NCBI RefSeq assembly: GCF_034439495.1
Contig: NZ_JAWXAM010000045.1
Source of the DNA: Terricaulis sp.
GTDB lineage: Bacteria > Pseudomonadota > Alphaproteobacteria > Caulobacterales > Aquidulcibacteraceae
DNA length: 64,000 nucleotides
Strand: one strand, 5' to 3'
Below, piece by piece: positions 3,002-58,538 of the stretch (positions are counted from its first letter, which is position 1; the number at the start of each line of letters is the position of its first letter). The translations under genes were made by a program, and so were the position numbers. The notes beneath the pieces are model-generated. The model had not been told where the DNA came from, searched no databases, and saw only the letters and a program-made list of their open reading frames with translations.

Positions 3002-3112
3002 CGCGAGTTGTCGCCAGACTCGCGCCGCGCCGGTTAATGCTTCATCAACCATAGGCTCTGGGCTGCACCCCAGACCCGCACGAAATGTCTCATGAAATCA
3101 GAGACAAAGAAA

Positions 3113-3133
3113 CCGGCAATGGCGCCTTGCCGG
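3113..3133 (-). terminator. Rho-independent terminator after htpX
   Basis: CCGGCAA/TTGCCGG stem with a 7-nt loop, followed on the minus strand by TTTCTTTG; lies 4 bp past the htpX stop. Confidence 0.6.
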
Positions 3134-3136
3134 GGT

Positions 3137-4051: not shown

Positions 4052-4104
4052 CGCACTCCTCACGTCTCGGAACTATGATATTGAAATCGCCGGAGCCCGA
4101 TTCA

Positions 4105-4284
4105 ATGAGTGAGAACAGCGACGTTCCGCGGAAATTGACGCCGGAGGCGGAGCGCGCACTGGCCGAGGCCGCGGCGCGCCGGGCGGAGGCCGAGAAGCTC
4201 GCGACGGAACATGGCGGCCCGTCCGGCCCGGAGCCGACGCGTTACGGCGACTGGGAACGCAAAGGCATCGCGACCGACTTTTGA
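4105..4284 (+). CDS. DUF1674 / SdhAF4-like small protein
   Basis: Diagnostic C-terminus GGPSGPEPTRYGDWERKGIATDF; divergent from htpX. Confidence 0.9.
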   Translation: MSENSDVPRKLTPEAERALAEAAARRAEAEKLATEHGGPSGPEPTRYGDWERKGIATDF

Positions 4285-4387
4285 TTAACGGCCAGCACGC
4301 GCGGGCGAAGTTCGCGCGCCGGTGGCGAAGCTGCTTCACGCCTGTTCGGACCTGCGCAAGAGTGCGTCGTTAAGGTGGAGAAGCCGC

Positions 4388-4786
4388 ATGCGCGCGCTCG
4401 TATTGTTTGCCGCTCTGGCGTTGGTCGCCGCTCCGGTGCTGGCGATCCCAAGCGTTGCCTACGCCGATGGCATCGAGCGTCCGCAGCAACCGCGCCCGCG
4501 GCCACGTCCGCGCCCCGCGCCGCCGCGTGAAGCGCCGCCGCCGGCGCCCCTGCCGCTCGCGCCGCAGGGCCCCGAGGAAGTGACGCTGTCACAATCCTTC
4601 TTCGCCGGTGCAGGTGGCGGGGTGGGCGTCGATGTCGCAGCCTCCAGCTATTACTCAAGCACGACCGTGGTGATCCGCGGCGGCCACGCGCAGGCCTCGG
4701 CCTTCGCTTATGCCTCGGCCCGCGCGGGCGCGCGCAGCGGCGGCTGGGGCCGCGGCGGCGGGCATGGCGGGTGCGGTTGCCGTTAA
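4388..4786 (+). CDS. Secreted Pro-rich/Gly-rich hypothetical protein
   Basis: Signal peptide MRALVLFAALALVAAP, (PR)n/PAPP tract, Gly-rich tail ending CGCR. Confidence 0.6.
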   Translation: MRALVLFAALALVAAPVLAIPSVAYADGIERPQQPRPRPRPRPAPPREAPPPAPLPLAPQGPEEVTLSQSFFAGAGGGVGVDVAASSYYSSTTVVIRGGHAQASAFAYASARAGARSGGWGRGGGHGGCGCR

Positions 4787-4907
4787 GGCGCCGCCGCTAA
4801 CCAAAGCACAAGGCCTCCAGGCGCATGCATTTGCCCCACTAGGTGAAAGGGCGTAAACGCGCGGCCCGGGTGCGGGCCCAATCCGCCGCCCAATAGGGGA
4901 ATTCTTT

Positions 4908-6857: not shown

Positions 6858-6880
6858 ACAAGATGTGCTAACCTAAGGGC

Positions 6881-7177
6881 ATGGCGCTCGCTTGGCTCCT
6901 CATAGGCGTTATGCTCTTGCTTTCGGGCGCGGCGTTTATTGCGTCACCGAGTGGCGTCAGATTGCCGATGCAGTGGGGCCTCAATGGACGCCCGACGTGG
7001 CGCGCGCCGCGTTTGATGGCGGTGCTGTTTGCGCCGGCGCTCGCAACCGCCATTCTCTTGATCACTTCTTCATTCGCCGCGAATGCGCATTGGGTAGCGA
7101 TGTCGGTGGCGGCGATCTTCGTCGTCGTACACGCGGGCCATTTGTATTTTGCCCTGCGCGACGTCAGACGGCCCTAG
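6881..7177 (+). CDS. Small membrane protein, DUF1648/SdpI-like
   Basis: LPMQWGLNGRPTW resembles the P-x-H/Q-W-x-x-x-G-x-P motif; about three hydrophobic segments. Confidence 0.6.
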   Translation: MALAWLLIGVMLLLSGAAFIASPSGVRLPMQWGLNGRPTWRAPRLMAVLFAPALATAILLITSSFAANAHWVAMSVAAIFVVVHAGHLYFALRDVRRP

Positions 7178-8052
7178 CGGTAAAGATAGTTCGCCGGCAG
7201 CCCCAAGCGCATGCACGCTTGCGCCGGCGGGGCTTCGTCGAGCACGAACCGCTCTGAAATCGCGCCAATCGCGCGCAGCAACGTCGCTTCGCCACGCCGC
7301 AAACCGCATTCGCGTCCGAGTCCAAGCAGATCGCGCGCCCAAGCCGGCGTGATCTCGACAGCAGCGCGGATCATCATGCGCTGCACCCCGCGCAGCGGCA
7401 GGATCGGCGCGCTGCGGACAATGTCGAGAAACTCAAACACGATGTCGGAGCGTTCGAGCTTCAACCGCATCTGATCGAAATATGCCTCCATCGCCGCTGC
7501 CGATTTCGGCACGCCGATAGCGCCGTAGAGCGCGGCTGCTTCGGCGCCTTCTGCATAAACAGCGTCCAACTCCTCTGCCGCCAGGGGCCGCACGAAGCGA
7601 CTATAGGCTTCAAAGAAGCCAAAGCCGGCGGTGGCTTGCACCCAGTTCAGAAGCTCCTCGTCATTGGCGCGATACGGAATGCCGGTGGGCGTCAGGCCTT
7701 CAACGCGTTCATGCCCGCGCACCACGCCGGCGATCATCGCCCGGGCGGTGTCGGCCGGCGCGTAAATCGTCACCCACGCGGCATAGCCCGTGCGCCGCAT
7801 GCGCGTGACGGGATCGCGGCGAAAGCTGGTGTGTTCCCAGACCCCGGTGCGCACGCGCGGCTCGGCCAGTTCGAGGATCACCGCCGCTATCCCGCCGACG
7901 ATCAGCGCGACCGGGTTCTTCATCACACGCCAGGTGGTGGAGTCCGGCGCAAACAAGGCCGGCGCGCCGGCAGGCGCACTGAAATTCACCGGGCGCATGC
8001 CGGGCGGCGGTGCGATGTAATCGCGTAACAGTCGATCCAAGTTGCGGCGCAT
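7174..8052 (-). CDS. Oxygenase MpaB / DUF2236 family protein
   Basis: LELAEPRVRTGVWEHTSFRRDP, HERVEG and YRANDEELLNWVQAT pattern. Confidence 0.85.
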   Translation of the reverse strand: MRRNLDRLLRDYIAPPPGMRPVNFSAPAGAPALFAPDSTTWRVMKNPVALIVGGIAAVILELAEPRVRTGVWEHTSFRRDPVTRMRRTGYAAWVTIYAPADTARAMIAGVVRGHERVEGLTPTGIPYRANDEELLNWVQATAGFGFFEAYSRFVRPLAAEELDAVYAEGAEAAALYGAIGVPKSAAAMEAYFDQMRLKLERSDIVFEFLDIVRSAPILPLRGVQRMMIRAAVEITPAWARDLLGLGRECGLRRGEATLLRAIGAISERFVLDEAPPAQACMRLGLPANYLYR

Positions 8053-8092
8053 GGGTGTGAAACCTTACCATGCCAACGCTGAAAGGAGCATC

Positions 8093-9031
8093 GTGTCCGC
8101 ACCCGACCTTACGTCATTGCAGCAGCGCGCCGTCGGCGGCGACGCGCGCGCGCAATATGAGCTGGGCGCGATGCTGCTCGTCGGACGCGGTGCGCCGTGG
8201 GCGCCACAGCAGGCCTACAAGTTGATCGACGCGGCGGCCGCGCAGAACCAGGCGGACGCGCTGCGCCTGTCCTCGGTGCTTTCGGCGCTAGGTGAGGGGC
8301 GCGCGCAGGATTGGTCGCAGGCGCATGGGCTTGTTGTTCGCGCCGCCGACGCCGGCGACGCGCGCGCGCAGCGCGAGCTCGCCGTTCTCGGCGCGTCGTT
8401 CGATGCGCAAGCTTGGCTCACGCCGCCGGGGCCAGCGCAACACTTCGATGCGCCACGCGTGCTGACGTTCGAAAAATTTATCTCGCCGGCAGCCTGTGAT
8501 TGGATTCGCGCCCTCGCTGCGCCGCGCCTTGAGGCTGCGCGCGTGAAGAACCCGGAGCGCGGCGGCGCCAATTCCGATCAGTACCGCAGCAATACCGGCA
8601 TGGGTTTGAGTGTGCTCGATACCGATCTCGTGGTGCAGCTCACGCACGCGCGCATCGCCAACGCTATCGGCGTGCCTGTGGCGCAGCAGGAGCCAACCAA
8701 CGTCCTGCACTACGAACCCGGACAGGAATACAAACCGCATTTCGACTTTATCGATCCCGGCGTCGCACACTTCGCGCAAGAAGTTCAGCGCCTCGGCCAG
8801 CGCACGGTTACCTTCCTAATCTATCTCAACGACGATTACGAAGGCGGCGCGACGGCGTTTCCGCGGCTTGATTGGAGCTTCAAAGGCAAGAAGGGCGATG
8901 CGCTGGCGTTCTGGAACGTCACCGATGGCCGCCCCGATCCGCGCACGCTGCACGCCGGCACGCCGACGACCAACGGCGTCAAATGGCTGTTCTCAAAATG
9001 GGTGCGCGATCGCGCCCTGCCTTTGGTTTGA
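8093..9031 (+). CDS. Sel1-like repeat + prolyl-4-hydroxylase-like 2OG-Fe(II) oxygenase (copy 1)
   Basis: GDARAQYELG Sel1-like start; YKPHFDF (HxD), LHAG, KWLFSKW. GTG start after an AAGGAG RBS. Confidence 0.85.
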   Translation: MSAPDLTSLQQRAVGGDARAQYELGAMLLVGRGAPWAPQQAYKLIDAAAAQNQADALRLSSVLSALGEGRAQDWSQAHGLVVRAADAGDARAQRELAVLGASFDAQAWLTPPGPAQHFDAPRVLTFEKFISPAACDWIRALAAPRLEAARVKNPERGGANSDQYRSNTGMGLSVLDTDLVVQLTHARIANAIGVPVAQQEPTNVLHYEPGQEYKPHFDFIDPGVAHFAQEVQRLGQRTVTFLIYLNDDYEGGATAFPRLDWSFKGKKGDALAFWNVTDGRPDPRTLHAGTPTTNGVKWLFSKWVRDRALPLV

Positions 9032-9056
9032 GCATCGAGAGGGCTACGGATAGCAG

Positions 9057-10004
9057 ATGACGGTCACCATCGAATCACTGAAGGACGCCGCGGCATCAGG
9101 CGATCCGCGGTCGCAATTCCGGTACGCACGTGAGCTGCTGATCGGCACGCGCGTGCGATATGATTCAGAAACCGCGCTGAGGCTAGTCGAGGCAGCTTGC
9201 AGCGCACGCTATCCGCAGGCCCTGCTGTTTCACGCTACGCTCGCTGCGCTGGGCTTTGGACGCAGCCAGAGTTTCGAGGACGCTCTGGGCTTTGTGGAGC
9301 AGGCCGCGGCTCTCGGCGATGCCCGTGCTCAGGGCCAACTCGCCGCTCTGGGCGGGCGAGAGGGGTTTCGCGCGGAAAACTGGCTCGCATTGCCGAGCTT
9401 GCAGAAGCATCATGACGCGCCGAGGATATTTACCGTCGAGAGCTTTTTGTCGCGCGATGCTTGCGCGTGGCTGATTGATCAAACGCGAAGGCGCCTTATC
9501 CCGGCGAAGGTGAAGGATCCGGCTCAAGGCGGATCCGGATTCGCGAATTATCGGAGCAATAGCGGCGCAGGATTCAGTTCGATCGAATCCGATCTGGTTG
9601 TTCAGATGACCAATCTGCGTATTGCAACGGTCATGAACCTGCCGATCGCGAACCAGGAGCCTACGAATGTGCTCCACTACGCGCCGGGCCAAGAGTATCG
9701 CCCGCACTTTGATTTTGTGACCCCAGACGAGGCCCCGGCTTTTCAACGCGAGTTGGCGAGTGTCGGGCAGCGCGTCGCCACAGTACTCATTTATCTCAAC
9801 GACGATTACGAAGGCGGCGAGACTCACTTCCCGCGGCTGAATTTTCGCTATCGGGGCGCAACTGGTGACGCGTTGATCTTCTGGAATTTGTCCGCCACCG
9901 GGCAGTTGGAGCGCCAGTCGCTGCACGCCGGAGTTCCAGTGGTGGCTGGAGAAAAATGGATTCTGTCAAAGTGGATTCGCGAGCGACCGTTTCCGCTGGT
10001 CTGA
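9057..10004 (+). CDS. Sel1-like repeat + prolyl-4-hydroxylase-like 2OG-Fe(II) oxygenase (copy 2)
   Basis: YRPHFDF, LHAG, KWILSKW; N-terminal GDPRSQF Sel1-like repeat. Confidence 0.85.
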   Translation: MTVTIESLKDAAASGDPRSQFRYARELLIGTRVRYDSETALRLVEAACSARYPQALLFHATLAALGFGRSQSFEDALGFVEQAAALGDARAQGQLAALGGREGFRAENWLALPSLQKHHDAPRIFTVESFLSRDACAWLIDQTRRRLIPAKVKDPAQGGSGFANYRSNSGAGFSSIESDLVVQMTNLRIATVMNLPIANQEPTNVLHYAPGQEYRPHFDFVTPDEAPAFQRELASVGQRVATVLIYLNDDYEGGETHFPRLNFRYRGATGDALIFWNLSATGQLERQSLHAGVPVVAGEKWILSKWIRERPFPLV

Positions 10005-10035
10005 TTTCTATTTAAGTTGAGTTTGCAAAACACTG

Positions 10036-10968
10036 ATGGACCCGCGCCTCCTAAAACCCGCCGCGCCGACTGACCCGCGCACGCAAGTGCGCCAGGCGCA
10101 TCTGATGCTGACCGGCAAGCTCCCGTCGTTTGGCAACGAAGCGATCAAACTGGTGGAAGCCGCGTGTGCGCAGAAATCAGCTGAAGCTCTGCTATACCAC
10201 GCAGCGCTCGCCGCGCGTGGGCACGGCCGCGCGCAAAACTTCGATCACGCGTTCAGATATGTGCAGGAGGCTGCGGCTCTGGGCGATACCCGCGCTAAGG
10301 GCCAGCTCATGGCCCTGGAAAACAAATTCGACCGGCAAGCATGGCTCACGCCTGTCGCTTTGCAGCAGCATCACGCCGCGCCGCGTGTGTTCACGGTGGA
10401 GAAATTCATCTCCAAGCCGGTGTGCAATTGGCTGATGAAGCAGGCGCGCAAGAACCTTCAGCGCGCCACTGTGCAACTCGCGGCCAAAAGCGGCGCCGCC
10501 GCGGTCGACAACGCCCGTTCCAATTCAGTGGCGGGCTCGCATCCGCTACAACCGGACTTGGTGATGCAGCTGGTGAACCAGAAGATCGCCGCCACGATCG
10601 GTGTGCCCGTGGCGCATCAGGAAACCACCAACATTCTGCACTATGCACGTGGCGAGCAATACATCCCGCACTTCGACTTTTTCACCGAGGCGGAAGAGGC
10701 GGGCTTCGCGCACGAGATGCGCACCATTGGCCAGCGCATTTGCACCTTTCTGATCTATCTCAACGATGGCTATGAGGGCGGTGAGACGAACTTCCCGCGC
10801 CTCGATTGGCGCTTCAAGGGCAAGCCTGGCGATGCGTTGATCTTCTGGAATCTCTCTGCTGACGGCCAGCGCGAGCTGCTTTCGCTGCATGCCGGCCTGC
10901 CGGTGACGAAGGGGGAGAAGTGGCTCTTGTCGAAATGGGTGCGCCAGCGCCCTGTGCCCGTGGCTTAG
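10036..10968 (+). CDS. Sel1-like repeat + prolyl-4-hydroxylase-like 2OG-Fe(II) oxygenase (copy 3)
   Basis: YIPHFDF, LHAG, KWLLSKW; same architecture as copies 1 and 2. Confidence 0.85.
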   Translation: MDPRLLKPAAPTDPRTQVRQAHLMLTGKLPSFGNEAIKLVEAACAQKSAEALLYHAALAARGHGRAQNFDHAFRYVQEAAALGDTRAKGQLMALENKFDRQAWLTPVALQQHHAAPRVFTVEKFISKPVCNWLMKQARKNLQRATVQLAAKSGAAAVDNARSNSVAGSHPLQPDLVMQLVNQKIAATIGVPVAHQETTNILHYARGEQYIPHFDFFTEAEEAGFAHEMRTIGQRICTFLIYLNDGYEGGETNFPRLDWRFKGKPGDALIFWNLSADGQRELLSLHAGLPVTKGEKWLLSKWVRQRPVPVA

Positions 10969-48012: not shown

Positions 48013-48027
48013 TGGCGACCCCGGAGA
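48013..48027. repeat. Distal att core TGGCGACCCCGGAGA
   Basis: Identical to 58462-58476, the last 15 nt of tRNA-Arg(CCT) including CCA. Confidence 0.92.
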
Positions 48028-48182
48028 ATGTAGGACTGCCCCGCCAATTCAAGCGCTTAGACTGAAAATTCCCAAATCACGCACCGTGCGTTTTCAATGC
48101 GTTGGAGGAGAATCCCAAACGCGCCGAGTGGGGTTTCAAAATTGAACCGCGCCTGTGGCACGGTTAATGCACGGGCCCGTGC

Positions 48183-48674
48183 ATGGTGAAGGCAACACGC
48201 ACACCGGACGGCGACACCGCGTATCACTTGGACGACAAGTCCGAGTGGAGCGTGGGCGGCGTGAGCGGGGAAGTTTACCTTACCCACCTTCACCGAAAGA
48301 AGTGTCTTGAGTTGCAGGCGCGATTGAATGGTGTTGCTCCGCCTGATGCACTGCTAGTGGCCGCAGAAGTCACCGAAGCGTTTGTCAAATCACAGGAACC
48401 CGCAACGCGCCGCGGCAAGCCACTCCTTATGGCGGACGCAGTCAATCGCGCGGCAAATGCCAAGACGAACCGCCGCTACGCGGAACAGATCGCAGACGCC
48501 GTCAAAGACTTGGCGACGACCAAGAAGCGAGTAACCGCAGCGGCGATTGGCCGAATAATCGGCGTGGACCGTCGCCGCGTGAGTGAATGGCTCCAACACG
48601 ACGAAGTCCGGAAGTACCTCGCGGCGGAGGTTCTCGAAGCATTGTGTCCGTCCGCTGAGTGCCGGACCACCTAA
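48183..48674 (+). CDS. Element protein with a C-terminal HTH
   Basis: VTAAAIGRIIGVDRRRVSEWL helix-turn-helix pattern. Confidence 0.65.
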   Translation: MVKATRTPDGDTAYHLDDKSEWSVGGVSGEVYLTHLHRKKCLELQARLNGVAPPDALLVAAEVTEAFVKSQEPATRRGKPLLMADAVNRAANAKTNRRYAEQIADAVKDLATTKKRVTAAAIGRIIGVDRRRVSEWLQHDEVRKYLAAEVLEALCPSAECRTT

Positions 48675-48715
48675 GCCGGTCTTTCTGGTTTTACTTCCTT
48701 GTGAAGAGGAAGACC

Positions 48716-49114
48716 ATGACAGCCGCAAACATCAAACATTTCCGACCCGCCGCCGAGCTTGTAACATCTCGCAATCGAGAGGAAGCGCTCAAGGCGATGA
48801 CGCCGCGCCTGCTTGAACTCGCCGACCGCGTCGTGTGCGAGAATCCGCAACGCGGACAGATTCCAACTATTCTGGTTTTCGCGCCGGGGCTAATGCTCAC
48901 GGCAGTGCGGGTGCCGTCGATGCCGGGTGCGACGTACGTTGACGTACGCTTGGCGATCAATGAACCAGACACCGTGAGTTGGGGGCCGAAAGTGTTCTCG
49001 GCGTGGTTCAATTGTCCGCCGACGTTCCGCGGCAAGTACATGAACGGCGACGTGCACGTCATGTCATGGAAGCGCGGTTGGGAAGGCGCACTTGTGAACG
49101 TGGCGCGCCAATGA
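48716..49114 (+). CDS. Element hypothetical protein (132 aa)
   Basis: GAGG RBS; ATGA-coupled to the next gene. Confidence 0.65.
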   Translation: MTAANIKHFRPAAELVTSRNREEALKAMTPRLLELADRVVCENPQRGQIPTILVFAPGLMLTAVRVPSMPGATYVDVRLAINEPDTVSWGPKVFSAWFNCPPTFRGKYMNGDVHVMSWKRGWEGALVNVARQ

Positions 49115-49299
49115 CCAAGTTCATCCACACGATGGAAGGCTACGCGATCAACACTGCCCACGTGGTCCGCGCTCGGCGAGAGAAAACCGAAGACGGATTA
49201 TGGGTGTGGCGGATCGATACGACGGCACACGGCTCTTATCGGGTCGCGGACAACGGCGCGACACCGTTCACATATCTCAACCAGCCCGCCGGGAAGTGA
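49111..49299 (+). CDS. Element small hypothetical protein (62 aa)
   Basis: ATGA overlap upstream and GTGA overlap with the primase start. Confidence 0.65.
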   Translation: MTKFIHTMEGYAINTAHVVRARREKTEDGLWVWRIDTTAHGSYRVADNGATPFTYLNQPAGK

Positions 49300-51515
49300 C
49301 CGACCGTCCGTGGTTGGGCGCGGTTAGTGACGCGTCCAAGGCTGTTCAATCGCTGCAATGGCGCGATCCTGCCGGACCGTGGGGTTTGGCTTCGTCGGAT
49401 CGTGAGGGGAAGGCGTGGCGCTTTGCGACGTTCACCGCGGCGCACGCCGACGACGCGCGCGTGTGGATCGAGTCGCAAGAACGCGACGAACGCAATGTGT
49501 ATGCCTCGCTCAATCGGGTGCGTGCGGACCTGACAAGCAAGGCCAAGAAAGCGGACGTTGTCGCGTGCGTTGCGTTGCTCGTGGACGTGGACGTACCCGC
49601 GTTGCCGGACGGATGGGCCGACACGCCGCAAGCTTGGGCGCTTGGCGCGCAAGACCGGCTATTCGCCACGCTGGACGAACAATGGCCCGCGGACCTTCCG
49701 CTACCGACCGTCCGCCTATTCAGCGGCGGCGGCGTTCAACTGATTTGGGAATGTGCCACGCCGTACGCGGACGACGACCGCATTGAGCTTTTCGAGCGCA
49801 TGGCGCAAGTCGCTCAAGAGCGCGTCGGCGCTATGGGTCTAGTCCCGGACCATACGTTCAACGTGGACCGCTTGGTCCGTTTGCGAGGGACCACGAACCG
49901 TCCCAAGGCGACGAAGCAAGCGAAGGGTCAGACAGACACGGTCGCCGCAATCGTCAGCACGCACCGCAAGTACGCGCTGGAAGACTTGCGGGCGGCGTTT
50001 GATCGGCCCCTGAGCAAACAGACGGTGGCGCCTGAGGCGGTCGGCGCAATCGAGCCTCTGACAGTCACCGACGAAGACTTAGCCGCCTGGGGCGTCAATG
50101 AGGCGCTTGCATGGATCATTCGGACCGGTGTGTCCGGCTACGGCGCGGCCAAGCTCAAGGACAACTCGCGTAGCGCCTGGGAATGGGACGCGGTGTGCCG
50201 AATGATCCGGCTCGGTCTGGACGACGCTCAGATTGCGGGCGTCTTGCTCAACACCGCTTGGAAGATAGGCGAGCGCGCACGCGAGCGGCGGAATCCAATC
50301 GATCATATAGCCCGGCTAGTGAAGCGGGCGCGGCACGTAACGAACCACGCGGAACGTCAGTTTGCTTGCGGTGACGATGGGCGTCCGGTCCGTTGTCGTC
50401 CGAACTACATAACCGCCGCTCACAAGCTCGGCTTGAAGCTCAGTTACAACGAATTTGCCGACGTCCTGAGTATTGGCGGAATCGACGGTGTCGGTCCGGC
50501 GCTGGACGATAAGGCGGTGACGCGCGTTCGCTTCGCAATCGAAGACCGCTTTAGTTTCTTGCCTGACCGTGAGTTGTTGGCGGACGTGCTAGCGGACGAA
50601 GCCGTCCAAAATCGATTCAATCCGGTCCGCGATCACTTGGACACACTCAAGTGGGACGGTGTCGCGCGTCTGGACAATTGGTTGTCGGCGTACTGCAAAG
50701 CGGAAGACAGCGCGTACACGCGTGAAGTTGGGCGTGTGTTTCTCATTGCAGCGGTACGGCGTGCTAAGCGTCCGGGGTGCAAGTTTGACACCATGCTGAT
50801 CCTTGAGGGGACACAAGGGGCCTACAAAAGCACGGCGGTTCGCGTGCTGGCGGGACGTGACGAATGGTTTTCCGACGTCGTCCCCATCGGCGAGGAAGGC
50901 AACCGCGTAATTGAGGCCACGCGCGGCAAGTGGATCATTGAGGAAGGCGAGCTTGCGGGAATGAACGACCGAACCGTTGAGCGGTTGAAGGCGTTTTGCT
51001 CACGGGTCGCGGACCGTGGACGCCTCGCTTACGAACGCCGTCCGGTCGATATTCCGCGCGCGTTCGTGATCGTCGGGACGACCAATTCCAAGAGCTACTT
51101 AAACGACATGACCGGCGCGCGGCGTTTCCTGCCGGTGAAGGTCGGGCGGATCGATATTGAAGCGCTGATACGCGACCGGGACCAACTCTTGGCCGAAGCG
51201 GTCGAACGCGAAGCCACGGGCGAAGCTATCATTCTGAGCGATGCGGTCGGGGAGGCGGCTGAGTTGAAGCGTCGCGCGCGGACTCTCACCGACGATTGGA
51301 TTGAGACGCTACGGACCGTAACGGACGGTGACGAAGTGTGGTCGGGGCAGTGTTGGGCGGCGCTCAGGTTCGACGCTGGCGCCCGCGACAAGAGCAAGCA
51401 AAAGCGCTTGGCGGATTGTCTTGAGGCGATGGGCTTTGAACGGTCGGAAGCTCAGCCGCCGCGAGGCTCACACTTAGGGACGAAGTGGACGCGGGCGCGT
51501 GTGTCCGTCTCATAG
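49296..51515 (+). CDS. Primase-helicase: RepB/AEP-type primase fused to a VapE/VirE-type SF3 helicase
   Basis: LLVDVD, FSGGGVQLIW and RLRGTTN (primase); LILEGTQGAYKST Walker A, IIEEGEL, VIVGTTN, TGARRFLP (VapE). Confidence 0.88.
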   Translation: MTDRPWLGAVSDASKAVQSLQWRDPAGPWGLASSDREGKAWRFATFTAAHADDARVWIESQERDERNVYASLNRVRADLTSKAKKADVVACVALLVDVDVPALPDGWADTPQAWALGAQDRLFATLDEQWPADLPLPTVRLFSGGGVQLIWECATPYADDDRIELFERMAQVAQERVGAMGLVPDHTFNVDRLVRLRGTTNRPKATKQAKGQTDTVAAIVSTHRKYALEDLRAAFDRPLSKQTVAPEAVGAIEPLTVTDEDLAAWGVNEALAWIIRTGVSGYGAAKLKDNSRSAWEWDAVCRMIRLGLDDAQIAGVLLNTAWKIGERARERRNPIDHIARLVKRARHVTNHAERQFACGDDGRPVRCRPNYITAAHKLGLKLSYNEFADVLSIGGIDGVGPALDDKAVTRVRFAIEDRFSFLPDRELLADVLADEAVQNRFNPVRDHLDTLKWDGVARLDNWLSAYCKAEDSAYTREVGRVFLIAAVRRAKRPGCKFDTMLILEGTQGAYKSTAVRVLAGRDEWFSDVVPIGEEGNRVIEATRGKWIIEEGELAGMNDRTVERLKAFCSRVADRGRLAYERRPVDIPRAFVIVGTTNSKSYLNDMTGARRFLPVKVGRIDIEALIRDRDQLLAEAVEREATGEAIILSDAVGEAAELKRRARTLTDDWIETLRTVTDGDEVWSGQCWAALRFDAGARDKSKQKRLADCLEAMGFERSEAQPPRGSHLGTKWTRARVSVS

Positions 51516-51607
51516 GCATCCTAGCTAGGGGGCTAGGGGCTATTCTGTACTGGTTCTCTAGTTTCTCTTTCTATTAGAAGAACGTCGCACCCTATGACTA
51601 CCTATGA
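51510..51607. other. Putative iteron-type replication origin of the element
   Basis: TCATAGG and CTAGGGG x2 face CCTATGA x2 across an AT-rich spacer, right at the primase stop. Confidence 0.5.
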
Positions 51608-51889
51608 GGGATCGCCGCTAGGCCTACCGTGATAACTTGCGGCGATGTGGTCCCGCCCCACGCGGATGCTCCACGCGAGTGTGGCGACAAACATGCTAAT
51701 GCCAAACGCGGCAACCAGTACGCCTAGTGGAAGCTCCCCCGCCGAGATGCTGAAGAGATTCGTGAGGTCGATGCCCGGTAGAGCTATGGTTTTGATCGGT
51801 GAGATGAAGAGTAGGCCTAAGCCCGCCACCATCAGTACGCTGCTCAGCAGCAGCAGTAGCATCTTCGTAATTAGGAGGGCGGCACCCAT
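51602..51889 (-). CDS. Element two-TM membrane protein (95 aa)
   Basis: Two hydrophobic helices; overlaps the end of the upstream small gene; AGGA RBS. Confidence 0.55.
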   Translation of the reverse strand: MGAALLITKMLLLLLSSVLMVAGLGLLFISPIKTIALPGIDLTNLFSISAGELPLGVLVAAFGISMFVATLAWSIRVGRDHIAASYHGRPSGDPS

Positions 51890-52080
51890 TTCACGCAATC
51901 CTGTTGTGCGGCTGTGGACGGCTCTTGCAGTCGGTATCCGTGGTAGGAAAAGCGGGTTGGGTTCATTGGGTCAAGCGGTACCAGGATGGGTACCCAGAGA
52001 CCATCCTGGTCCCGTATTGGTTTCCGCCCTTCACATCTCTTGCCAAATCGCATTTCCGCCTCGTCCTGGTTCAATCTCAT
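51871..52080 (-). CDS. Element small soluble protein (69 aa)
   Basis: GGAGG RBS 7 nt before ATG 52080: MRLNQDEAEMRFGKRCEG... Confidence 0.5.
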   Translation of the reverse strand: MRLNQDEAEMRFGKRCEGRKPIRDQDGLWVPILVPLDPMNPTRFSYHGYRLQEPSTAAQQDCVKWVPPS

Positions 52081-52369
52081 TACGCGCCTCCAATGATCCA
52101 AATCGGGACGGACAGCCACAATATCCAGTAGGTTCAGGCCGCGATTAACTAGTTTTTGTACTACAGCTTGTGGTCAGAGACCGGCGTCCAAGCTGAAAAG
52201 ACCCGCATGAGGCTTTTTCCTGGCAAAAATTCGTCAAAATTGGGGCAAATGAGGCAAATACAGGTTAAAGGCTAGTTGTCCGCTCGCTGAATACCGGACC
52301 AACGCAAGTACACACCGGGGTTAACTCCTTTCGTCAGGCCAATTCCGGCCATTCGCTAGGTAACTCCAA

Positions 52370-53674
52370 ATGAAACTGCACGAACTTAAGGAAGCCCGCG
52401 CCAAGAAGGTCGCGGAACTCCGCACAATCAACGACGCCGCCAACGGCAACGAACTCCCCGCCGAACAACGCTCACGCTTCGACGCCGTCGAAACGGAGGT
52501 CCGCGCGCTCAACGACCAAATTGGCCGCGCCGAGCGCCTCGCCGAATTCGAGCGCACCGCCGCCACCGGCACTCCGATCAACGACAACGGTACGCCCGAC
52601 TTTGAGCGTGAGTGCCGCGCGTTTTCACTGACCCGCGCGCTCGCCTATGCGTCTGGTCTGACTGTGGACGCTGCCCGCGAAGTGGAAGTCTCGCAGGAAA
52701 TCGAACGGCGCTCGGGTCGCAAACCGCAAGGCGCGCTTCTGGCGCCCGCTCAAATCTTCCTCGTTCCGCGTCACCCGAACGATATTGAACATCGCGTCAT
52801 GGTGTCGGGCACAACCGGCGCCGGCTTGGTCGGGACTGAGCATCGCCCACAAGACTACATCGATGCACTCCGCGCCAACCTCGTGACGGGTCGGCTCGGT
52901 GCAACGACGCTGAGCAATCTGCAACAAAACGTCTCGATCCCCAAGAACGCGGCGAACCGCTCGGGTCAATGGATCGCTGAAAATGCCGCGCTGACGCCGG
53001 TGGACGGTGACTTCGACTCGGTCACCATGACGCCGAAGCACGTCGGCGCGCTCACTGAGTTTTCGCGGAACATGCTTCTTCAATCGTCGCCGGATATCGA
53101 AACGCTTATCCGCAACGACTTCGCCGCGGCGCTCGCCGTCGCGCTCGATAAGGCGGCGCTTGTCGGCGGCGGATCGAATGAACCGTCCGGCATTATCGAC
53201 CGTCTGACCGATGCGTCGGCGATGGGTACGCTTGCGGATGCATCGTGGGAACAGGTGCTTGCGTTCATCGCAGGCGTTGAGCTTGCGAACGCCGCGACCG
53301 GTCGTCTCGGGTGGGCGCTCAATCCGAACGCGGTCAAGACGATGCGTGCAAAACCGAAGGTCGTTTACGGCTCACCCGAAACGCGCGATGCGGGCGCCGG
53401 GTTCGTCATGGACGGTCCGAACGAATTGGCGGGCTATGCCGCCGCCTCAACGACGTCCATGCCGGGCAGTGGTTCGCCCGCCGCCGGGTCGGCAATCTTT
53501 GGCGACTTCGCGTCGTTGCTCATCGGCTATTGGTCCGGAATCGACATTCTCGCCAACCCGTACGAATCCACCGCGTACGCCAAAGGCAACGTGCAAGTCC
53601 GTGGCTTGCTCACTGCCGACGTCGCCGTCCGTCACCTGGAAAGCTTCCAGGCCGCAACGGACATTCCGGCCTAA
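52370..53674 (+). CDS. HK97-fold major capsid protein with an N-terminal delta (scaffold) domain
   Basis: Coiled-coil N-terminus, LVGTEH...YIDALR, WIAE, VTMTPKHVGALTEFSRNML, GGGSNEPSGI, IFGDF, DVAVRH. Confidence 0.93.
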   Translation: MKLHELKEARAKKVAELRTINDAANGNELPAEQRSRFDAVETEVRALNDQIGRAERLAEFERTAATGTPINDNGTPDFERECRAFSLTRALAYASGLTVDAAREVEVSQEIERRSGRKPQGALLAPAQIFLVPRHPNDIEHRVMVSGTTGAGLVGTEHRPQDYIDALRANLVTGRLGATTLSNLQQNVSIPKNAANRSGQWIAENAALTPVDGDFDSVTMTPKHVGALTEFSRNMLLQSSPDIETLIRNDFAAALAVALDKAALVGGGSNEPSGIIDRLTDASAMGTLADASWEQVLAFIAGVELANAATGRLGWALNPNAVKTMRAKPKVVYGSPETRDAGAGFVMDGPNELAGYAAASTTSMPGSGSPAAGSAIFGDFASLLIGYWSGIDILANPYESTAYAKGNVQVRGLLTADVAVRHLESFQAATDIPA

Positions 53675-53783
53675 TCGAGTTCGGCGCACGGCTAGTTCAT
53701 GGCCGGGTTAACAACACGCGCCGGACGTGGGGGGCAACGAGCCTAGCCGTTGCTCCCCACTACCCGGCGAAGGAATCGCAAAC

Positions 53784-54326
53784 ATGCAAAACGAAATCGA
53801 ACGCCGCGCCGCCGAAGTGGAAGTGCGCTCTAAAGGTCGCGTCCTGGAAGGTTACGCGGCGGTGTTCAACACACGCGCCAAGGTCGCCGACTTTGACGAA
53901 CTGATTACACCGGGCGCATTCAACGCCACGCTCCGCGAACGCCCGCACGCCGACATTTTGGCGCTTGTGGACCATGACGCTTCGGCGTTGCTCGGACGCA
54001 CACGCAACAAAAGCCTTGAGCTTCACGAAGACACACGCGGACTTCACTTCCGCATTGCGCTTCCGAAGACGACGCTTGCGGACGATGTGTTGGCGCTTGC
54101 CGACGCCGGTTCGCTTGGCGGAATGTCGTTCGGATTCCGAGCGCTCAAGGACGCATGGTCCGGTGCGGTCCGTACGCTTCACGCAATCGACTTGCGGGAA
54201 ATCTCGGTCGTCCGCGCTTGGCCAGCGTATCCGCAAACTTCGGTGAGCGCCCGCGCGCTCGGTCACGTCCAGGACGGTCCGTTCGGTCGCCGCATTCGCC
54301 TTCTTGAGTTGGAGGGTGGACGTTGA
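53784..54326 (+). CDS. HK97-family prohead protease (S78)
   Basis: LEGYAAVFN, LVDHD (His), GMSFGF (Ser), LREISVV...PAYPQT. Confidence 0.95.
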   Translation: MQNEIERRAAEVEVRSKGRVLEGYAAVFNTRAKVADFDELITPGAFNATLRERPHADILALVDHDASALLGRTRNKSLELHEDTRGLHFRIALPKTTLADDVLALADAGSLGGMSFGFRALKDAWSGAVRTLHAIDLREISVVRAWPAYPQTSVSARALGHVQDGPFGRRIRLLELEGGR

Positions 54327-55528
54327 AACGCCTAGACCACTTCCTTGCCTCGCTCGGTCTTGAGCGACGGTCCGAACAACGTTCATACGACGCGCTTGCG
54401 CCCGATGCGTGGGGCAAACCTATTCCAGTTGGCGGCTATGCGTCGGCAAGCGCCGTGCTGAGCAATCTCGCCGTTGCGACCCGTTGCGTTTCGTTGCGGT
54501 CCGAATTGCTCGCAAGCGTTCCGCTCAAACTGTACCGGCGGCTCGCCAACGGCGACCGTGAACGGGTCACAGACTCGCCGCTTGCCGAAGTTCTGAGCGA
54601 CCTAGCGAACCCGCTTATGACGGCATTTGGCGCGCGAGAATTCTTCGTCCGTTCGCTCGATACCGCCGGAAACTCATACGCCCGGATCGAACGGGACGGC
54701 GCCGGACAGGTCACCGCGCTTTGGCCGCTTGAGCCGTCACGGGTAACCGTTGAGCGGCTTGAGAGTGGACGTGTGCGCTATCGCTATTCAGGCAATCAAG
54801 GCGCGGTCGTCCTGTTGCAAGAGGAAGTCTTGCACATTCGCGGTTCGTCGGAAGACGGGATGCTTGGGCGCTCGCCGATTGCAATTGCACGCGGCGCACT
54901 CGGGCTTGGGCTTGAGCTTACGTCCGCTGCCAACGACGCGGCGGCCCGCAACATCGGCGGTTACATTATTCAACCAACGGACTTGAACGCACGCGGGAAG
55001 CAAGCGCGCCGCGAAGCAATCGAAGACGCTCCCGGCAACCGCAACACGCCGAAGATTCTGGACCCAGGGGTGAAGTTCGTACCCAACCAGTTTTCCAGCG
55101 TGGACCAAGAGTTGTTGGAAAATCGGAAGCTGAGCAACGAAGACGTTGCCCGCGTATTCGGCGTCCCGCCCGCCTCGGTCGGTATCAGCACGTCCGTAAG
55201 CTACGGCTCGGCTCAACAGGCGGCGCAAGACCTTGTGACGAACGCGTTGGCGCCACTCGCTCAACGGATTGAACAGGACATGGCGCGTTGTCTGCTGACC
55301 ACCGAAGGTCGGCGCTTGTACGTGATCGAACATGACTTGGACGGTCTGTTGCGAGCGCAACCAACCGAGCGTTGGACAGCGTACCGAACCGCTCGGGAAA
55401 TCGGCGCCATGTCGTCCAATGAAATCCGTCGGTTTGAGAATATGCCCGCGGTGGAGGGTGGCGACGACCACACGCCGTTGCGCGCCGCCGGTCCGCCGCC
55501 CGCTGACACGATTGCGAGCGCCACATGA
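54323..55528 (+). CDS. HK97-family portal protein
   Basis: ASVPLKLY, GNSYARI, LWPL, EVLHIR, GRSPI, DVARVFGVPP, MSSNEIRRFENMP. Confidence 0.94.
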   Translation: MKRLDHFLASLGLERRSEQRSYDALAPDAWGKPIPVGGYASASAVLSNLAVATRCVSLRSELLASVPLKLYRRLANGDRERVTDSPLAEVLSDLANPLMTAFGAREFFVRSLDTAGNSYARIERDGAGQVTALWPLEPSRVTVERLESGRVRYRYSGNQGAVVLLQEEVLHIRGSSEDGMLGRSPIAIARGALGLGLELTSAANDAAARNIGGYIIQPTDLNARGKQARREAIEDAPGNRNTPKILDPGVKFVPNQFSSVDQELLENRKLSNEDVARVFGVPPASVGISTSVSYGSAQQAAQDLVTNALAPLAQRIEQDMARCLLTTEGRRLYVIEHDLDGLLRAQPTERWTAYRTAREIGAMSSNEIRRFENMPAVEGGDDHTPLRAAGPPPADTIASAT

Positions 55529-55899
55529 GCCATGCTCTGACCCTGGACGACTTCGTTGGTCCGATCATCGAAAGCATCGGTTACGACTTTTCGCGCATCG
55601 GCGAGTTGAACAACAATTCCCTTGCTACGCTCCACAACACCACGCAGGCCGCAAACTTCGCGCTTGCGGGACAGCTTGTTGAACAGGTCGGCGACAAAGC
55701 GACCGCGGAAGAATTGATTGTTGAGGCGTACAACCGCGATCCCGCCACCGCGAAACGTCTCCGCGCTTTGTTCTGTGCGGTCCTGGAAGCGGGCTTGCAA
55801 CCACGCCCGTCCTTGCTCGCCGCTCACATAGCGCTCGGCATTCAAATGCAAGAGGCGTTGGCATGCGAAGCGCAACGGCGCGTGTCCACCATGAACTGA
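55525..55899 (+). CDS. Helical hypothetical protein (124 aa) translationally coupled to the portal
   Basis: ATGA overlap with the portal stop; no motif recognised. Confidence 0.65.
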   Translation: MSHALTLDDFVGPIIESIGYDFSRIGELNNNSLATLHNTTQAANFALAGQLVEQVGDKATAEELIVEAYNRDPATAKRLRALFCAVLEAGLQPRPSLLAAHIALGIQMQEALACEAQRRVSTMN

Positions 55900-56033
55900 C
55901 AGAATTCCGCCGGGACTTTTCAACGTCAGTGGGCGCGTGTGCATCCAGACGAATAAGGCGGCGCTGCCGTGGTCCCCGGCGGACGCACTGGTTGACCCAA
56001 GCGCCGTCAACACACGCAAGTTTTCGAGACGAC

Positions 56034-56231
56034 ATGACGAGCAAAAACGGGAGTTATGAAAACGGCAGGCCAAAAGGGGACGCATCGCAAGCTAAGATTC
56101 GTCCTTGCCTCAATTGCCGTACGCGGTTCCTGTCACCGCACTTCGGCGTCCGCATGTGCGACCCATGCCGAACCGTGATTCACAACATGACCGAGCCGGG
56201 CAATCCAGGCGGTCGGAAGGCGCGGAAGTGA
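56034..56231 (+). CDS. Small zinc-ribbon protein (65 aa)
   Basis: CLNC-x13-CDPC; GTGA-coupled to xis. Confidence 0.65.
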   Translation: MTSKNGSYENGRPKGDASQAKIRPCLNCRTRFLSPHFGVRMCDPCRTVIHNMTEPGNPGGRKARK

Positions 56232-56455
56232 CACGCCCGCTTCCTTTTGATTGTCCGCGTGGACTCAACCGAGTCCAGGCCGCTGCGTACGTAGGTGTCA
56301 GCCCGACCACGTTTGACCGGTTGGTCGCCGAAGGCGTGATGCCGCGAGCGAAGGAAATTGGCGCTCGACGGGTCTATGACCGCGCCCAATTGGATCAAGC
56401 GTTTGACGCGCTCGGGGAGGGCGCCGAAGCTGGACGGAACGATTGGGATGGTTAG
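56228..56455 (+). CDS. Excisionase / AlpA-like winged HTH
   Basis: LNRVQAAAYVGVSPTTFDRLVAEGVMP...RRVYDRAQLD; overlaps the integrase start. Confidence 0.88.
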   Translation: MTRPLPFDCPRGLNRVQAAAYVGVSPTTFDRLVAEGVMPRAKEIGARRVYDRAQLDQAFDALGEGAEAGRNDWDG

Positions 56456-57506
56456 GGGACAGCCCGTGGCGACCGTCAAGCTTGCCTATGTGGACCGCTT
56501 CCGCGACCCGCGCGGTGCGTGGCGCTACTACTTCCGCCGCAACCGAACCAGTCGGCGCGTTCCGCTTCCCGGCCGTCCGGGCGATCCCGAGTTTATGGGC
56601 GCTTATCAGCTTGCCATTGCCGCGTTCTGCCCGGTCGGTCCGTTGCGGTCGCTCGCTCCCGCCGCCGGTACGGTGGACGCGTTGGCGGTCGCTTATTATC
56701 GCTCGCCGAACTTCTTGAGCCTAAAGGTCAGCACGCAAAAGACCTACCGACGCGAGATTGACCGTTGGCGTGAAAAGAATGGGACCAAGCGTGTCGTTCA
56801 ACTTCAACGTCGGCACATAATGGACCAAATGGCGGCGCGTCATGCGGACGGCGGACCCGAGGCGGCGAACAATCTGTTGCGCGTGGTTCGCTTGCTTTGC
56901 TCGTTCGCAGTCGAAAATGATTGGCGCCGTGATAACCCCGCGCTTGGAATCAAGAAGTTCAAAATGCGCGGCGACGGCTTTGTCGCGTGGTCCGAAGACG
57001 ACATTGCGAAGTATCTAAAGCACTGGAAGGCGGGGACGCGTGAGCGTCTAGCCTTGCTCTTGTTGCTCTACACCGGCCAACGCCGTAGCGATGTGATCCA
57101 AATGGGGCGTCAGCATGTGAGCGCCGACACTATACGTGTGAAGCAAGGGAAGACCGGAGCGCACTTGGTCATTCCGATGCACCCGGACCTTCGCGGGGTG
57201 TTGAAGAAGCTACCAAAGGACGGCTTAGCTTTTCTCACAACGCAGTATGGAACGCCGTTCAAGGACGGCGCGTCCTTCGGCAATCAATTCGGCGGGTGGT
57301 GCAAGGCGGCGGGGTTGAATGGGCGGAGCGCTCACGGCTTGCGGAAGTCCGCCGCGGTGCGACTTGTTGAGGCGGGCTGTTCGTCCAAGGAAGTCGCGGC
57401 AATAACCGGTCACGCGTCGTTGCGTGAAATCGAGCGCTACACGAAGGCGGCAGAGCAAGAGAAACTTGCCCGCGCCGCAATCACGCGGCTGATTAAGAAC
57501 GGTTGA
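56448..57506 (+). CDS. Tyrosine recombinase / integrase
   Basis: GQRRSD (R), HGLRK (HxxR), GH and Y catalytic residues. Start may instead be GTG 56466. Confidence 0.96.
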   Translation: MVRGQPVATVKLAYVDRFRDPRGAWRYYFRRNRTSRRVPLPGRPGDPEFMGAYQLAIAAFCPVGPLRSLAPAAGTVDALAVAYYRSPNFLSLKVSTQKTYRREIDRWREKNGTKRVVQLQRRHIMDQMAARHADGGPEAANNLLRVVRLLCSFAVENDWRRDNPALGIKKFKMRGDGFVAWSEDDIAKYLKHWKAGTRERLALLLLLYTGQRRSDVIQMGRQHVSADTIRVKQGKTGAHLVIPMHPDLRGVLKKLPKDGLAFLTTQYGTPFKDGASFGNQFGGWCKAAGLNGRSAHGLRKSAAVRLVEAGCSSKEVAAITGHASLREIERYTKAAEQEKLARAAITRLIKNG

Positions 57507-57516
57507 CTAACGCGCT

Positions 57517-58332
57517 TTAGTTCAAATTCTTGGACATCCATTCGCACCCGTCCAAGAGTTCTGTCACCTGTGCTTTGGTAGGTTCTACGCCCTTTTTGTG
57601 ACAGCAAATGTTTCTGAGGTCTCCGAGGTATGTAACCTTCCGCCAAGCGGGGGTGTCCAGCACATTGGCAGCTTTCAACGCATCATTGAGGTCAGAGATA
57701 GTGGGATTCTTCTTGCTCAGCTTCACTGAGTGGTGGTCAGCGAGTCGCTGCAAGTGCCCTTCGATGATCACGCCTGCCAAGGCTCCAGCCGCCCGCAAGC
57801 TCAGGGCGGCAAGTTCTCGGGCCACCGCAAGTTCGTTGTCTTGAATGTCTGCATAGAGTTGGCCCTCAATGTTGGCCAGCGCGGAATCGATGCGTTCGGT
57901 TAAACTGTGCAACAGTGCCAGTTGGTTGTAGAATGAACTTAGAGTTTGTGTGCGGATGTCGAAATCTGGATATTGCAGACGACTGGGCTGAACCCCCTTC
58001 ATAAAGTCTTGAATCACGAACGTGCCGTATCCCAGTGATTTCCGCTTTGGGTCGATTTCATAGTAACCTTTGAATTCGGCTAAGCGATCAGGGGCGAGAG
58101 ATCGGACCGCTGGTACCGCCTTGGTGTACCAAGCTTGGTACGAATGATGGAAATCGGGTTGCTTATCTTTGCTGTCGTTCTTCTGAAAGCGTTGCGCCAG
58201 TGCAATCCCAGTGCGGTACAACTCGCTAAGCTCCGAGCGTATCCGCACACTGCGCGATGATTCAACAACCGGTGGTGCCGGTGCATTTGACGGCGGGGAC
58301 GCCTTCTTTGCTCGATTTGGTTTCGCGGTCAT
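57517..58332 (-). CDS. Cargo protein with a C-terminal HEPN-like (DUF4145-like) domain
   Basis: AAGALAGVIIEGHL...ISDLNDAL...LRNICCH (Rx4H). AT-richer than the host genes (27/60 GC in 57961-58020, hand count). Confidence 0.7.
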   Translation of the reverse strand: MTAKPNRAKKASPPSNAPAPPVVESSRSVRIRSELSELYRTGIALAQRFQKNDSKDKQPDFHHSYQAWYTKAVPAVRSLAPDRLAEFKGYYEIDPKRKSLGYGTFVIQDFMKGVQPSRLQYPDFDIRTQTLSSFYNQLALLHSLTERIDSALANIEGQLYADIQDNELAVARELAALSLRAAGALAGVIIEGHLQRLADHHSVKLSKKNPTISDLNDALKAANVLDTPAWRKVTYLGDLRNICCHKKGVEPTKAQVTELLDGCEWMSKNLN

Positions 58333-58439
58333 GGACTATCAACTCTTTTGGTTGGCTTCACCTCTGCCGCTCGGCGCGCGAACGACAAGCGAACGGGAAT
58401 TCCCAAACCGATTCCCAAACCCACTCTACACCCCTTGAA

Positions 58440-58452
58440 AATCAAGTGCTTG
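58440..58452 (+). promoter_or_regulatory. IHF site in the att arm
   Basis: AATCAAGTGCTTG is an exact match to WATCAANNNNTTR, 9 bp from the att core. Confidence 0.65.
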
Positions 58453-58461
58453 CAAAGGGAG

Positions 58462-58476
58462 TGGCGACCCCGGAGA
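58462..58476. repeat. tRNA-proximal att core TGGCGACCCCGGAGA
   Basis: Identical to 48013-48027. Confidence 0.92.
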
Positions 58477-58538
58477 GATTCGAACTCCCGACCGTGTCCT
58501 TAGGACGGACCTGCTCTATCCAGCTGAGCTACGGGGCC
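58462..58538 (-). tRNA. tRNA-Arg (anticodon CCT), the integration target
   Basis: GGCCCCG/CGGGGTC acceptor, GCTC/GAGC D arm, GT-CCT-AA loop, TTCGAAT T-loop, encoded CCA; 77 nt. Confidence 0.92.

Follow-up and report, generated by a model that had tools for sequence, protein, structure and literature searches.

A tRNA-integrated element of Terricaulis with its own head genes and no large terminase, read as a reduced satellite of the capsid-forming phage-inducible chromosomal island type

A stretch of 64,000 nucleotides from Terricaulis sp. (contig NZ_JAWXAM010000045.1 of assembly GCF_034439495.1; the window, below) carries, between positions 48013 and 58476, a compact element that has genes for a major capsid protein, a prohead protease and a portal protein of its own and none for a large terminase subunit (TerL). 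Based on a comparison with related loci, 170 in all, we consider it highly probable that the element is a TerL-less derivative of a family of the capsid-forming phage-inducible chromosomal island (cf-PICI) type, and its best reading is that of a reduced cf-PICI-type satellite that would have lost its packaging-enzyme and head-completion genes. That it makes its own procapsid and borrows the terminase and the tail of a helper is, in our estimation, rather likely, a proposal that we hold with less confidence. An earlier sequence-only reading of this DNA had listed as separate options a satellite that builds its own head and borrows both terminase and tail, and a reduced cf-PICI; both were largely right and describe the same thing. 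Its view that the element fits neither known class and stands for a new one did not hold, since the element nests in a family whose TerL-carrying members match the cf-PICI gene set and gene order.

The element is bounded by an exact 15-bp direct repeat, TGGCGACCCCGGAGA, found at 48013-48027 and 58462-58476 (spacing 10,449 bp), and the right copy, the attR core, is formed by the 3' 15 nt of an intact tRNA-Arg(CCT) gene. All of its open reading frames (ORFs) are intact and its genes are tightly packed, as the sequence-only reading had described. Within the element just four ORFs reach 300 aa, those for the primase, capsid, portal and integrase. A TerL hidden Markov model (HMM), built from 85 TerLs of related elements, had no match anywhere in the 64 kb of the window translated in six frames, Pfam and PHROGs returned no terminase match for the element's ORFs, and HMMs made from the relatives' HNH proteins, three TerS families and the head-closure protein Hc1 found nothing in the window. 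The Xis-like helix-turn-helix (HTH) protein of the element does match a TerS family weakly (6e-5), but its match to a regulator family is better (3e-16). Among the element's ORFs there was no match to the adaptor/connector and head-closure families PF05135 and PF05521 and, in Pfam or PHROGs, none to tail, holin or lysis families or to Sid-, Psu- and Delta-like families. The stated absence of TerL, HNH, head-completion and tail genes was therefore borne out by HMM, Pfam and PHROG searches alike. A complete or recently degraded HK97-like prophage was rejected, as neither terminase, head-completion, tail, lysis and immunity modules nor remnants of them were seen; the best capsid matches to any cultured phage are at 28-34% identity.

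At E<=1e-10, database homologues of the capsid protein number 623; Hyphomonadaceae and other Alphaproteobacteria account for most of them, and a striking number lie on contigs of 9-11 kb. From searches with a capsid alignment we took 80 of 145 confirmed GTDB genome loci and 80 of at least 581 confirmed IMG/VR matches. The family's hosts span Alpha-, Beta- and Gammaproteobacteria as well as Desulfovibrio, and its capsids share only 28-34% identity with those of any cultured phage. Some 150 of 160 loci retain the order capsid-protease-portal, and about 100 loci encode a TerL of ~530 aa (PF03354 and PF20441), usually together with an HNH protein; a TerS (phrog_5601, phrog_83) is often present as well, and a head-closure protein (PF05521) in some cases. 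In proteobacterial cf-PICIs the published order is capsid-protease-portal-head connectors, then hnh-terS-terL (Alqurainy et al., bioRxiv 10.1101/2022.09.08.507074). Because the TerL-carrying members have the cf-PICI gene set in this published order, the whole family is, judged by gene content, a cf-PICI-type lineage of tRNA-integrating elements.

The element and the cf-PICIs (prototype EcCIEDL933) have in common an integrase, an AlpA-type regulator, a primase-replicase and their own HK97-type capsid, protease and portal, in the order capsid-protease-portal and with no tail or lysis genes; the likeness is drawn from published gene content and order, and a phage database queried for the prototype returned only true phages at 23-34% identity. 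Unlike cf-PICIs, the element lacks TerL and HNH as well as a recognisable TerS and a head-tail adaptor/connector, and it measures ~10.4 kb against 15.4 kb; it carries 6 of 11 core components, whereas the cfPICI model of SatelliteFinder (PMC10085698) needs at least 9. The TerL-carrying relatives, at 37-50% capsid identity to the window, have HNH, TerS, TerL and head-closure genes as cf-PICIs do.

According to the family HMM, 63 of 165 loci have no TerL. When we considered the 69 loci that are circular or have enough flank, 45 were TerL-carrying and 24 TerL-less, and HNH was absent wherever TerL was absent. Every relative whose capsid is at least 50% identical to that of the window is TerL-less; these are L001-L008, L014, L015, L081-L084 and L163, together with L166, L167 and L169/170, which were reached through orf124, the small gene that follows the portal. 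The lack of TerL down to ~50% capsid identity means that this is not a recent, private deletion. The 24 TerL-less loci fall in several separate places of a neighbour-joining (NJ) capsid tree. Apart from the window's relatives they include Sphingomonadales singletons, five elements of Xanthomonadales and three complete circular contigs of 9,960-10,702 bp. Where TerL is missing, the large ORFs that precede the capsid gene encode replicases (AAA_25 with an NrS-1 primpol, or DUF5906/VapE/D5_N), not terminases. Between the window and six relatives, dN/dS was 0.13-0.25 for the capsid, 0.06-0.28 for the protease, 0.05-0.19 for the portal and 0.15 for orf124, in comparisons spanning dS of 0.3-2. The head genes are, by this measure, under purifying selection and the TerL-less state is, on the capsid tree, a recurrent one; a repeated lack of terL in diverse copies had been named beforehand as a sign of a real class.

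Element size, delimited by the tRNA 3'-end repeat that brackets the head module, is 8.8-11.0 kb from att to att in TerL-less elements (n=21) and 8.0-11.4 kb in TerL-carrying ones (n=35), with one extra outlier of 14.7 kb in the latter set that probably stems from a false repeat. A common ceiling of ~10 kb is as a fixed small capsid would impose. HK97 packs 39.7 kb in a T=7 shell and P4 packs 11.6 kb in a T=4 shell and, by analogy, ~10 kb would fit a shell of T=3 or T=4. The room gained by the loss of TerL and HNH is taken up again: the largest non-core ORF has a median length of 608 aa in TerL-less and 272 aa in TerL-carrying elements (Mann-Whitney p=7e-4, from crude gene calls and with phylogeny not controlled); the TerL-less replicases are 550-760 aa long and the TerL-carrying elements mostly lack a large replicase. 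The larger replicases fit a trade-off under fixed capsid capacity, and the data suggest that within ~10 kb an element can afford either a packaging motor or a full primase-helicase.

Some TerL-less elements have kept a TerS. The Xanthomonadales elements are arranged as int - regulators - replicase - capsid - protease - portal - TerS, and their TerS (phrog_641, 6e-32; PF03592) shares ~35% identity with its counterpart in siphophages of Pseudomonas and Burkholderia, while L157, a complete circle of 9,960 bp, encodes a P27-type TerS (PF05119, 7e-19) and no TerL. Since a TerS is useful only with a TerL partner, these elements most plausibly redirect the TerL of a helper, as classical PICIs do, and the size together with TerS in the absence of TerL argues that TerL-less elements are still packaged. 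The partner could also come from within the family, with a co-resident TerL-carrying element supplying TerL and HNH and a phage supplying tails only. Such a terminase would already be adapted to this portal family, as the portals and capsids of both kinds are homologous at 37-50% identity and both kinds measure ~10 kb, and the terminase of the characterised cf-PICI is specific for satellite heads. We nevertheless regard this as unlikely: no genome carried both kinds in the sample of 80 of 145 genomic loci, and the Xanthomonadales elements have swapped the family TerS for one of phage type (fam31, 35% to siphophage TerS), which points to a phage TerL as the partner.

Under the reading that we prefer, of a satellite with its own procapsid and a borrowed terminase and tail, infection by a helper phage or its induction would lead to excision through Int and Xis, followed by replication. 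The three head proteins would self-assemble into small procapsids for ~10 kb (T=3 or T=4), and the large terminase of the helper, aided where necessary by the helper's HNH and TerS, would dock on the satellite portal and package satellite DNA. This DNA could be recognised through a cos or pac mimic or through satellite factors, which may be the retained TerS in sister lineages and perhaps, in the clade of the window, orf124 and/or the zinc-ribbon protein beside it. The particles would then be finished and released by the head-completion proteins, tails and lysis functions of the helper. The gene map behind this proposal was made with Pfam and PHROGs, and with independent gene calls on two public contigs that carry an identical element:

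48013..48027, no strand: attL core, the 15-bp repeat TGGCGACCCCGGAGA, an exact match to 58462-58476.
48068..48077, + strand: candidate integrase arm-type site near attL, ATTCCCAAAT (motif scan).
48183..48674, + strand: first gene of the early operon, 163 aa, possibly a regulator (gene call).
48716..49114, + strand: 132-aa protein (gene call; no family match in Pfam, PADLOC or PHROGs).
49111..49299, + strand: 62-aa protein (gene call; no family match in Pfam, PADLOC or PHROGs).
49296..51515, + strand: primase-helicase, 739 aa, the replication module (PF05272, 2.9e-67; PHROG DNA helicase/primase families).
51519..51538, + strand: terminator-like hairpin just past the primase stop codon (pattern scan).
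51602..52080, - strand: accessory slot with two small antisense ORFs, of 95 aa (predicted membrane protein) and 69 aa (gene calls).
52370..53674, + strand: HK97-fold major capsid protein, 434 aa (PF05065, 9e-31 over residues 158-429; phrog_617, 2e-61).
53727..54326, + strand: S78 prohead serine protease, 180-199 aa depending on the start codon (PF04586, 3e-39).
54323..55528, + strand: portal protein, 401 aa (PF04860, 1.4e-81, full profile covered).
55525..55899, + strand: orf124, 124 aa (gene call; 4-nt ATGA overlap with the portal stop codon).
56034..56231, + strand: 65-aa zinc-ribbon protein, CxxC-x15-CxxC (phrog_13335, function unknown, 1e-5 to 4e-8).
56224-56244: terminator-like hairpin (pattern scan).
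~56234..56455, + strand: AlpA/Xis-like HTH_17 protein (PF12728, 7e-7; phrog_25900, 3e-16; phrog_66, excisionase).
56358..57506, + strand: tyrosine integrase (PF00589, 5.5e-20; phrog_1, 3.6e-45).
57517..58332, - strand: 271-aa cargo gene (gene call).
58399..58420, + strand: two tandem ATTCCCAAAC repeats, candidate integrase arm-type sites near attR (motif scan).
58462..58538, - strand: tRNA-Arg(CCT), the integration target (ARAGORN; Rfam RF00005, 51.7 bits).

The overlap of orf124 with the portal stop codon, together with the 4-nt overlap (TTGA) between the protease stop and the portal start, indicates that orf124 is translationally coupled to the head genes, in an operon that runs from the capsid through protease, portal and orf124 to the zinc-ribbon protein. 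Its family occurs in TerL-less alphaproteobacterial elements only and forms 53 clusters among 1.84 billion representative proteins; the members are stand-alone proteins of ~105-133 aa, with the exception of one 1,368-aa match. An AlphaFold2 model based on a 36-sequence alignment shows an all-helical protein of six helices (pLDDT 91.6), for which Foldseek gave best E values of 2.7 in the PDB and 0.46 in BFVD and no connector match. The orf124 profile matched nothing among PDB sequences, Pfam and PHROGs, tblastn against phages found nothing, and comparison by hhalign with the relatives' families gave no indication of a TerS, HNH or Hc1; since TerS control families fail to detect each other, these sequence negatives are weak. 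The zinc-ribbon ORF beside it is conserved in eight clade members, and the two proteins sit where cf-PICIs carry connectors and packaging genes, so that from position and co-occurrence we infer a role in packaging or head completion. In L166, a 210-aa ORF (7077-7709) lies between the portal and the orf124 homologue and shows a faint match to gp6-like head-tail connectors (PF05135); hhalign found no profile similarity between this protein and orf124.

A confident fold without a match, coupling to the portal and confinement to TerL-less elements are also what could be expected if orf124, the zinc-ribbon protein or the helicase replaced the terminase in a non-canonical self-packaging, or if DNA were enclosed without any motor. 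This we consider most improbable, as orf124 has 124 aa, is all-helical and has no NTPase motif, and other TerL-less lineages that have no orf124 keep a TerS, which is sensible only with a TerL partner. We know of no portal-containing HK97-type system that packages dsDNA without a TerL-type ATPase.

A number of observations weigh against the proposed borrowing of a helper terminase, or against parts of the evidence behind it. In the source microbial-mat metagenome the depth of the element, 51.8x, equals that of its flanks, giving no sign of activity in the sample, and no excision or circle junctions were found among the contigs of four metagenome runs. Neither a conserved noncoding cos-like block nor a cos/pac site was found, and noncoding conservation was seen with the closest relative only, upstream of the capsid gene. 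The 64-kb window contains no second capsid, portal, protease, integrase or TerL, so that no helper prophage or gene transfer agent cluster lies within 64 kb; the gene transfer agent that had been suggested as a helper finds no counterpart there. Furthermore, satellite and phage packaging are mutually exclusive in the characterised cf-PICI, whose packaging is argued to be insulated from that of the phage (bioRxiv 10.1101/2022.09.08.507074), and a foreign TerL acting on a satellite portal is hence not a given. A TerL of another family could escape the family HMM in loci without a Pfam check, the NJ capsid tree and the gene calls are crude, and no likeness of orf124 to TerS, Rpp or adaptors was detected, which leaves position as the ground for its role.

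The equal depth and the missing junctions, along with the absence of essential packaging genes, would also suit a decaying remnant, that is, a defective cf-PICI or prophage fragment that has lost its packaging genes and is immobile. We judge this very unlikely, in view of the intact ORFs, the dN/dS of 0.05-0.28 over dS of 0.3-2, the exact att core, the same architecture in many divergent genomes with different tRNAs and different replicases, and the existence of circular TerL-less contigs of ~10 kb.

A further explanation is that capsid, protease and portal serve mainly as decoys, poisoning or diverting the head assembly of a helper, with transfer of the element itself being minor or absent. 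Production of small capsids is a classic interference strategy of satellites, and the element carries cargo genes without a family match at 57517-58332 and 51602-52080. Interference as the main function appears quite unlikely to us: a pure decoy, which had been among the options of the sequence-only reading and is now disfavoured, needs neither the ~10-kb limit that TerL-less elements keep, nor the TerS of sister lineages, nor an integrase, att sites and a replicase of its own, and PADLOC gave no match for any ORF of the element. Interference is, in any case, compatible with a satellite that is packaged by a helper terminase, and the two are not exclusive.

To our knowledge, the capsid-forming satellites characterised so far all carry their own TerS and TerL. 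Classical PICIs and SaPIs resemble the window element in the layout int - regulators - pri/rep - morphogenesis genes - (TerS) and in the dependence on a helper TerL that we propose, and the Xanthomonadales TerL-less relatives show exactly the classical PICI layout, with TerS last. Classical PICIs, however, remodel helper capsids, and portal and connectors are 'forbidden' in the PICI model, whereas the window element has its own capsid, protease and portal; the portal rules out a classical PICI. P4, with its helper P2, is a tRNA-adjacent satellite of ~10-12 kb with a primase-helicase of its own, and it is the helper terminase that fills its small heads. These heads are made from the capsid and portal of P2 by means of Sid, P4 having no capsid, protease or portal genes, in contrast to the window; a P4-like satellite was rejected on the presence of these three genes and the lack of Sid-, Psu- and Delta-like matches.

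The Streptomyces satellites MulchRoom and MiniFlayer encode capsids and use helper tails, as the window element would, but they encode TerS and TerL and have no replicases, which is the opposite reduction (PMC10690885). EPIPs of Mycolicibacterium are reported to carry a major capsid protein and TerS without TerL (preprint PMC12822802) and so offer a precedent for a motorless capsid-encoding satellite. Compared by description, they differ in being actinobacterial, with a serine integrase, tape-measure, scaffold and adaptors, and no portal or protease is listed for them (PMC12822802). The entities described as 'Small viruses / encapsulin' are portal-less, VEIMEs are mostly without capsid genes and haloarchaeal satellites are unrelated, and all three were set aside. 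Full-text searches of the literature returned no description of TerL-less satellites encoding both portal and capsid in Proteobacteria, the nearest precedent being the EPIP preprint.

If the proposed reading is correct, the satellite portal must work with a foreign terminase, and these elements would offer a naturally occurring case in which to study how portals fit terminases and adaptors. They would also bridge PICIs, which carry TerS or cos only, and cf-PICIs, which carry all but tails, with gene content traded under a capsid capacity of ~10 kb between TerL/HNH and a large replicase. A bolder extension, which we offer tentatively and consider doubtful, is that TerL-less procapsid-only satellites constitute a widespread, recurrently evolved intermediate grade between PICIs and cf-PICIs, pairing their own portal and shell with a foreign terminase, and that the alphaproteobacterial orf124 and zinc-ribbon proteins are new hijack factors that recruit the helper motor to the portal or the DNA. 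TerL-less elements should fall below the cfPICI threshold of SatelliteFinder, and in Alpha- and Gammaproteobacteria they probably go under the annotation 'incomplete prophages'. TerL-less elements are present in at least four cultured isolates (Aquisalinus luteolus NH6-79, Lysobacter sp. CCNWLW3, Luteimonas endophytica RD2P54 and Pseudoxanthomonas mexicana DSM 17121), making the idea directly testable.

Inspection of the remaining genes led to several changes of label. The 163-aa gene at 48183-48674 had been called an HTH protein; its best match is HTH_23 at E=0.12, with no PHROG or PADLOC match, and the label was not retained. Similarly, the HEPN label of the 271-aa cargo gene finds no support in Pfam, PADLOC, PHROGs or the PDB, an R-x4-H motif seen by eye being its only basis, and the single-sequence AlphaFold2 model has a pLDDT of 50, too low to be of use. 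The primase-helicase has a C-terminal VapE/D5-type helicase and N-terminal motifs, DVDV and SGGGVQ in the translation, which we take to be AEP primase-like. The hairpin count in the region of the one at 51519-51538 is not above chance, and it is the position of this hairpin that makes it suggestive. The AlpA/Xis-like ORF is open from 56105. The capsid protein begins with a coiled-coil, delta-like region, and nucleotide similarity to L163 and L003 is lost over residues 1 to ~139 (52370-52786), whereas the rest aligns at 73-77%; either faster evolution or exchange of this scaffold-like N-terminal part seems to be at work.

The two ORFs described earlier as an antisense cassette, at 51602-52080, have no family match in Pfam or PADLOC, contain hydrophobic segments and lie in DNA of lower G+C (0.546). 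They occupy an accessory slot that is variable and not conserved: the gap between replicase and capsid spans 51516-52370 in the window and 3643-4179 in L163, which also has two antisense ORFs there, close in size to the window's pair but without homology to it.

With respect to the ends of the element, four copies of the motif ATTCCCAAAY were counted in the 64-kb window, where 0.19 would be expected. Three of the four are located within ~65 bp inside the att ends, a position that would suit integrase arm-type sites. Across the family, the att sites are the 3' ends of tRNA genes for Arg, Val, Ser, Pro, Gly, Leu, Met, Glu, Gln, Phe, Cys, Asp and Tyr, with att cores of 13 to at least 40 bp in the att-bounded elements (L001-L143).

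The modules of the family are mosaic. L163 has the head genes of the window and its primase (82% nucleotide identity), and L082 has the same repeat, the same tRNA and a common head-to-integrase block, with another replicase and a different gene in place of the 271-aa cargo gene. Despite these differences, the L082 element (441-10890) and that of the window (48013-58462) have the identical att-to-att length of 10,449 bp, which is either a coincidence or a sign of a very tight length constraint. L163 is a 10,463-bp Logan contig with the same 15 nt of a tRNA T-arm, GATTCGAACCCACGA, at both ends, so that the assembly broke at both att repeats, possibly because the population contains occupied as well as empty sites. 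Finally, the TerL-less contigs L153 (9,996 bp), L157 (9,960 bp) and L089 (10,702 bp) have terminal overlaps and are assembled circles, in which no integrase was found. L089 encodes a Rep3-type plasmid initiator and a D5 primase, and L153 a cytidine/dCMP deaminase-like gene; some members of the family may thus be plasmid-like instead of integrative.

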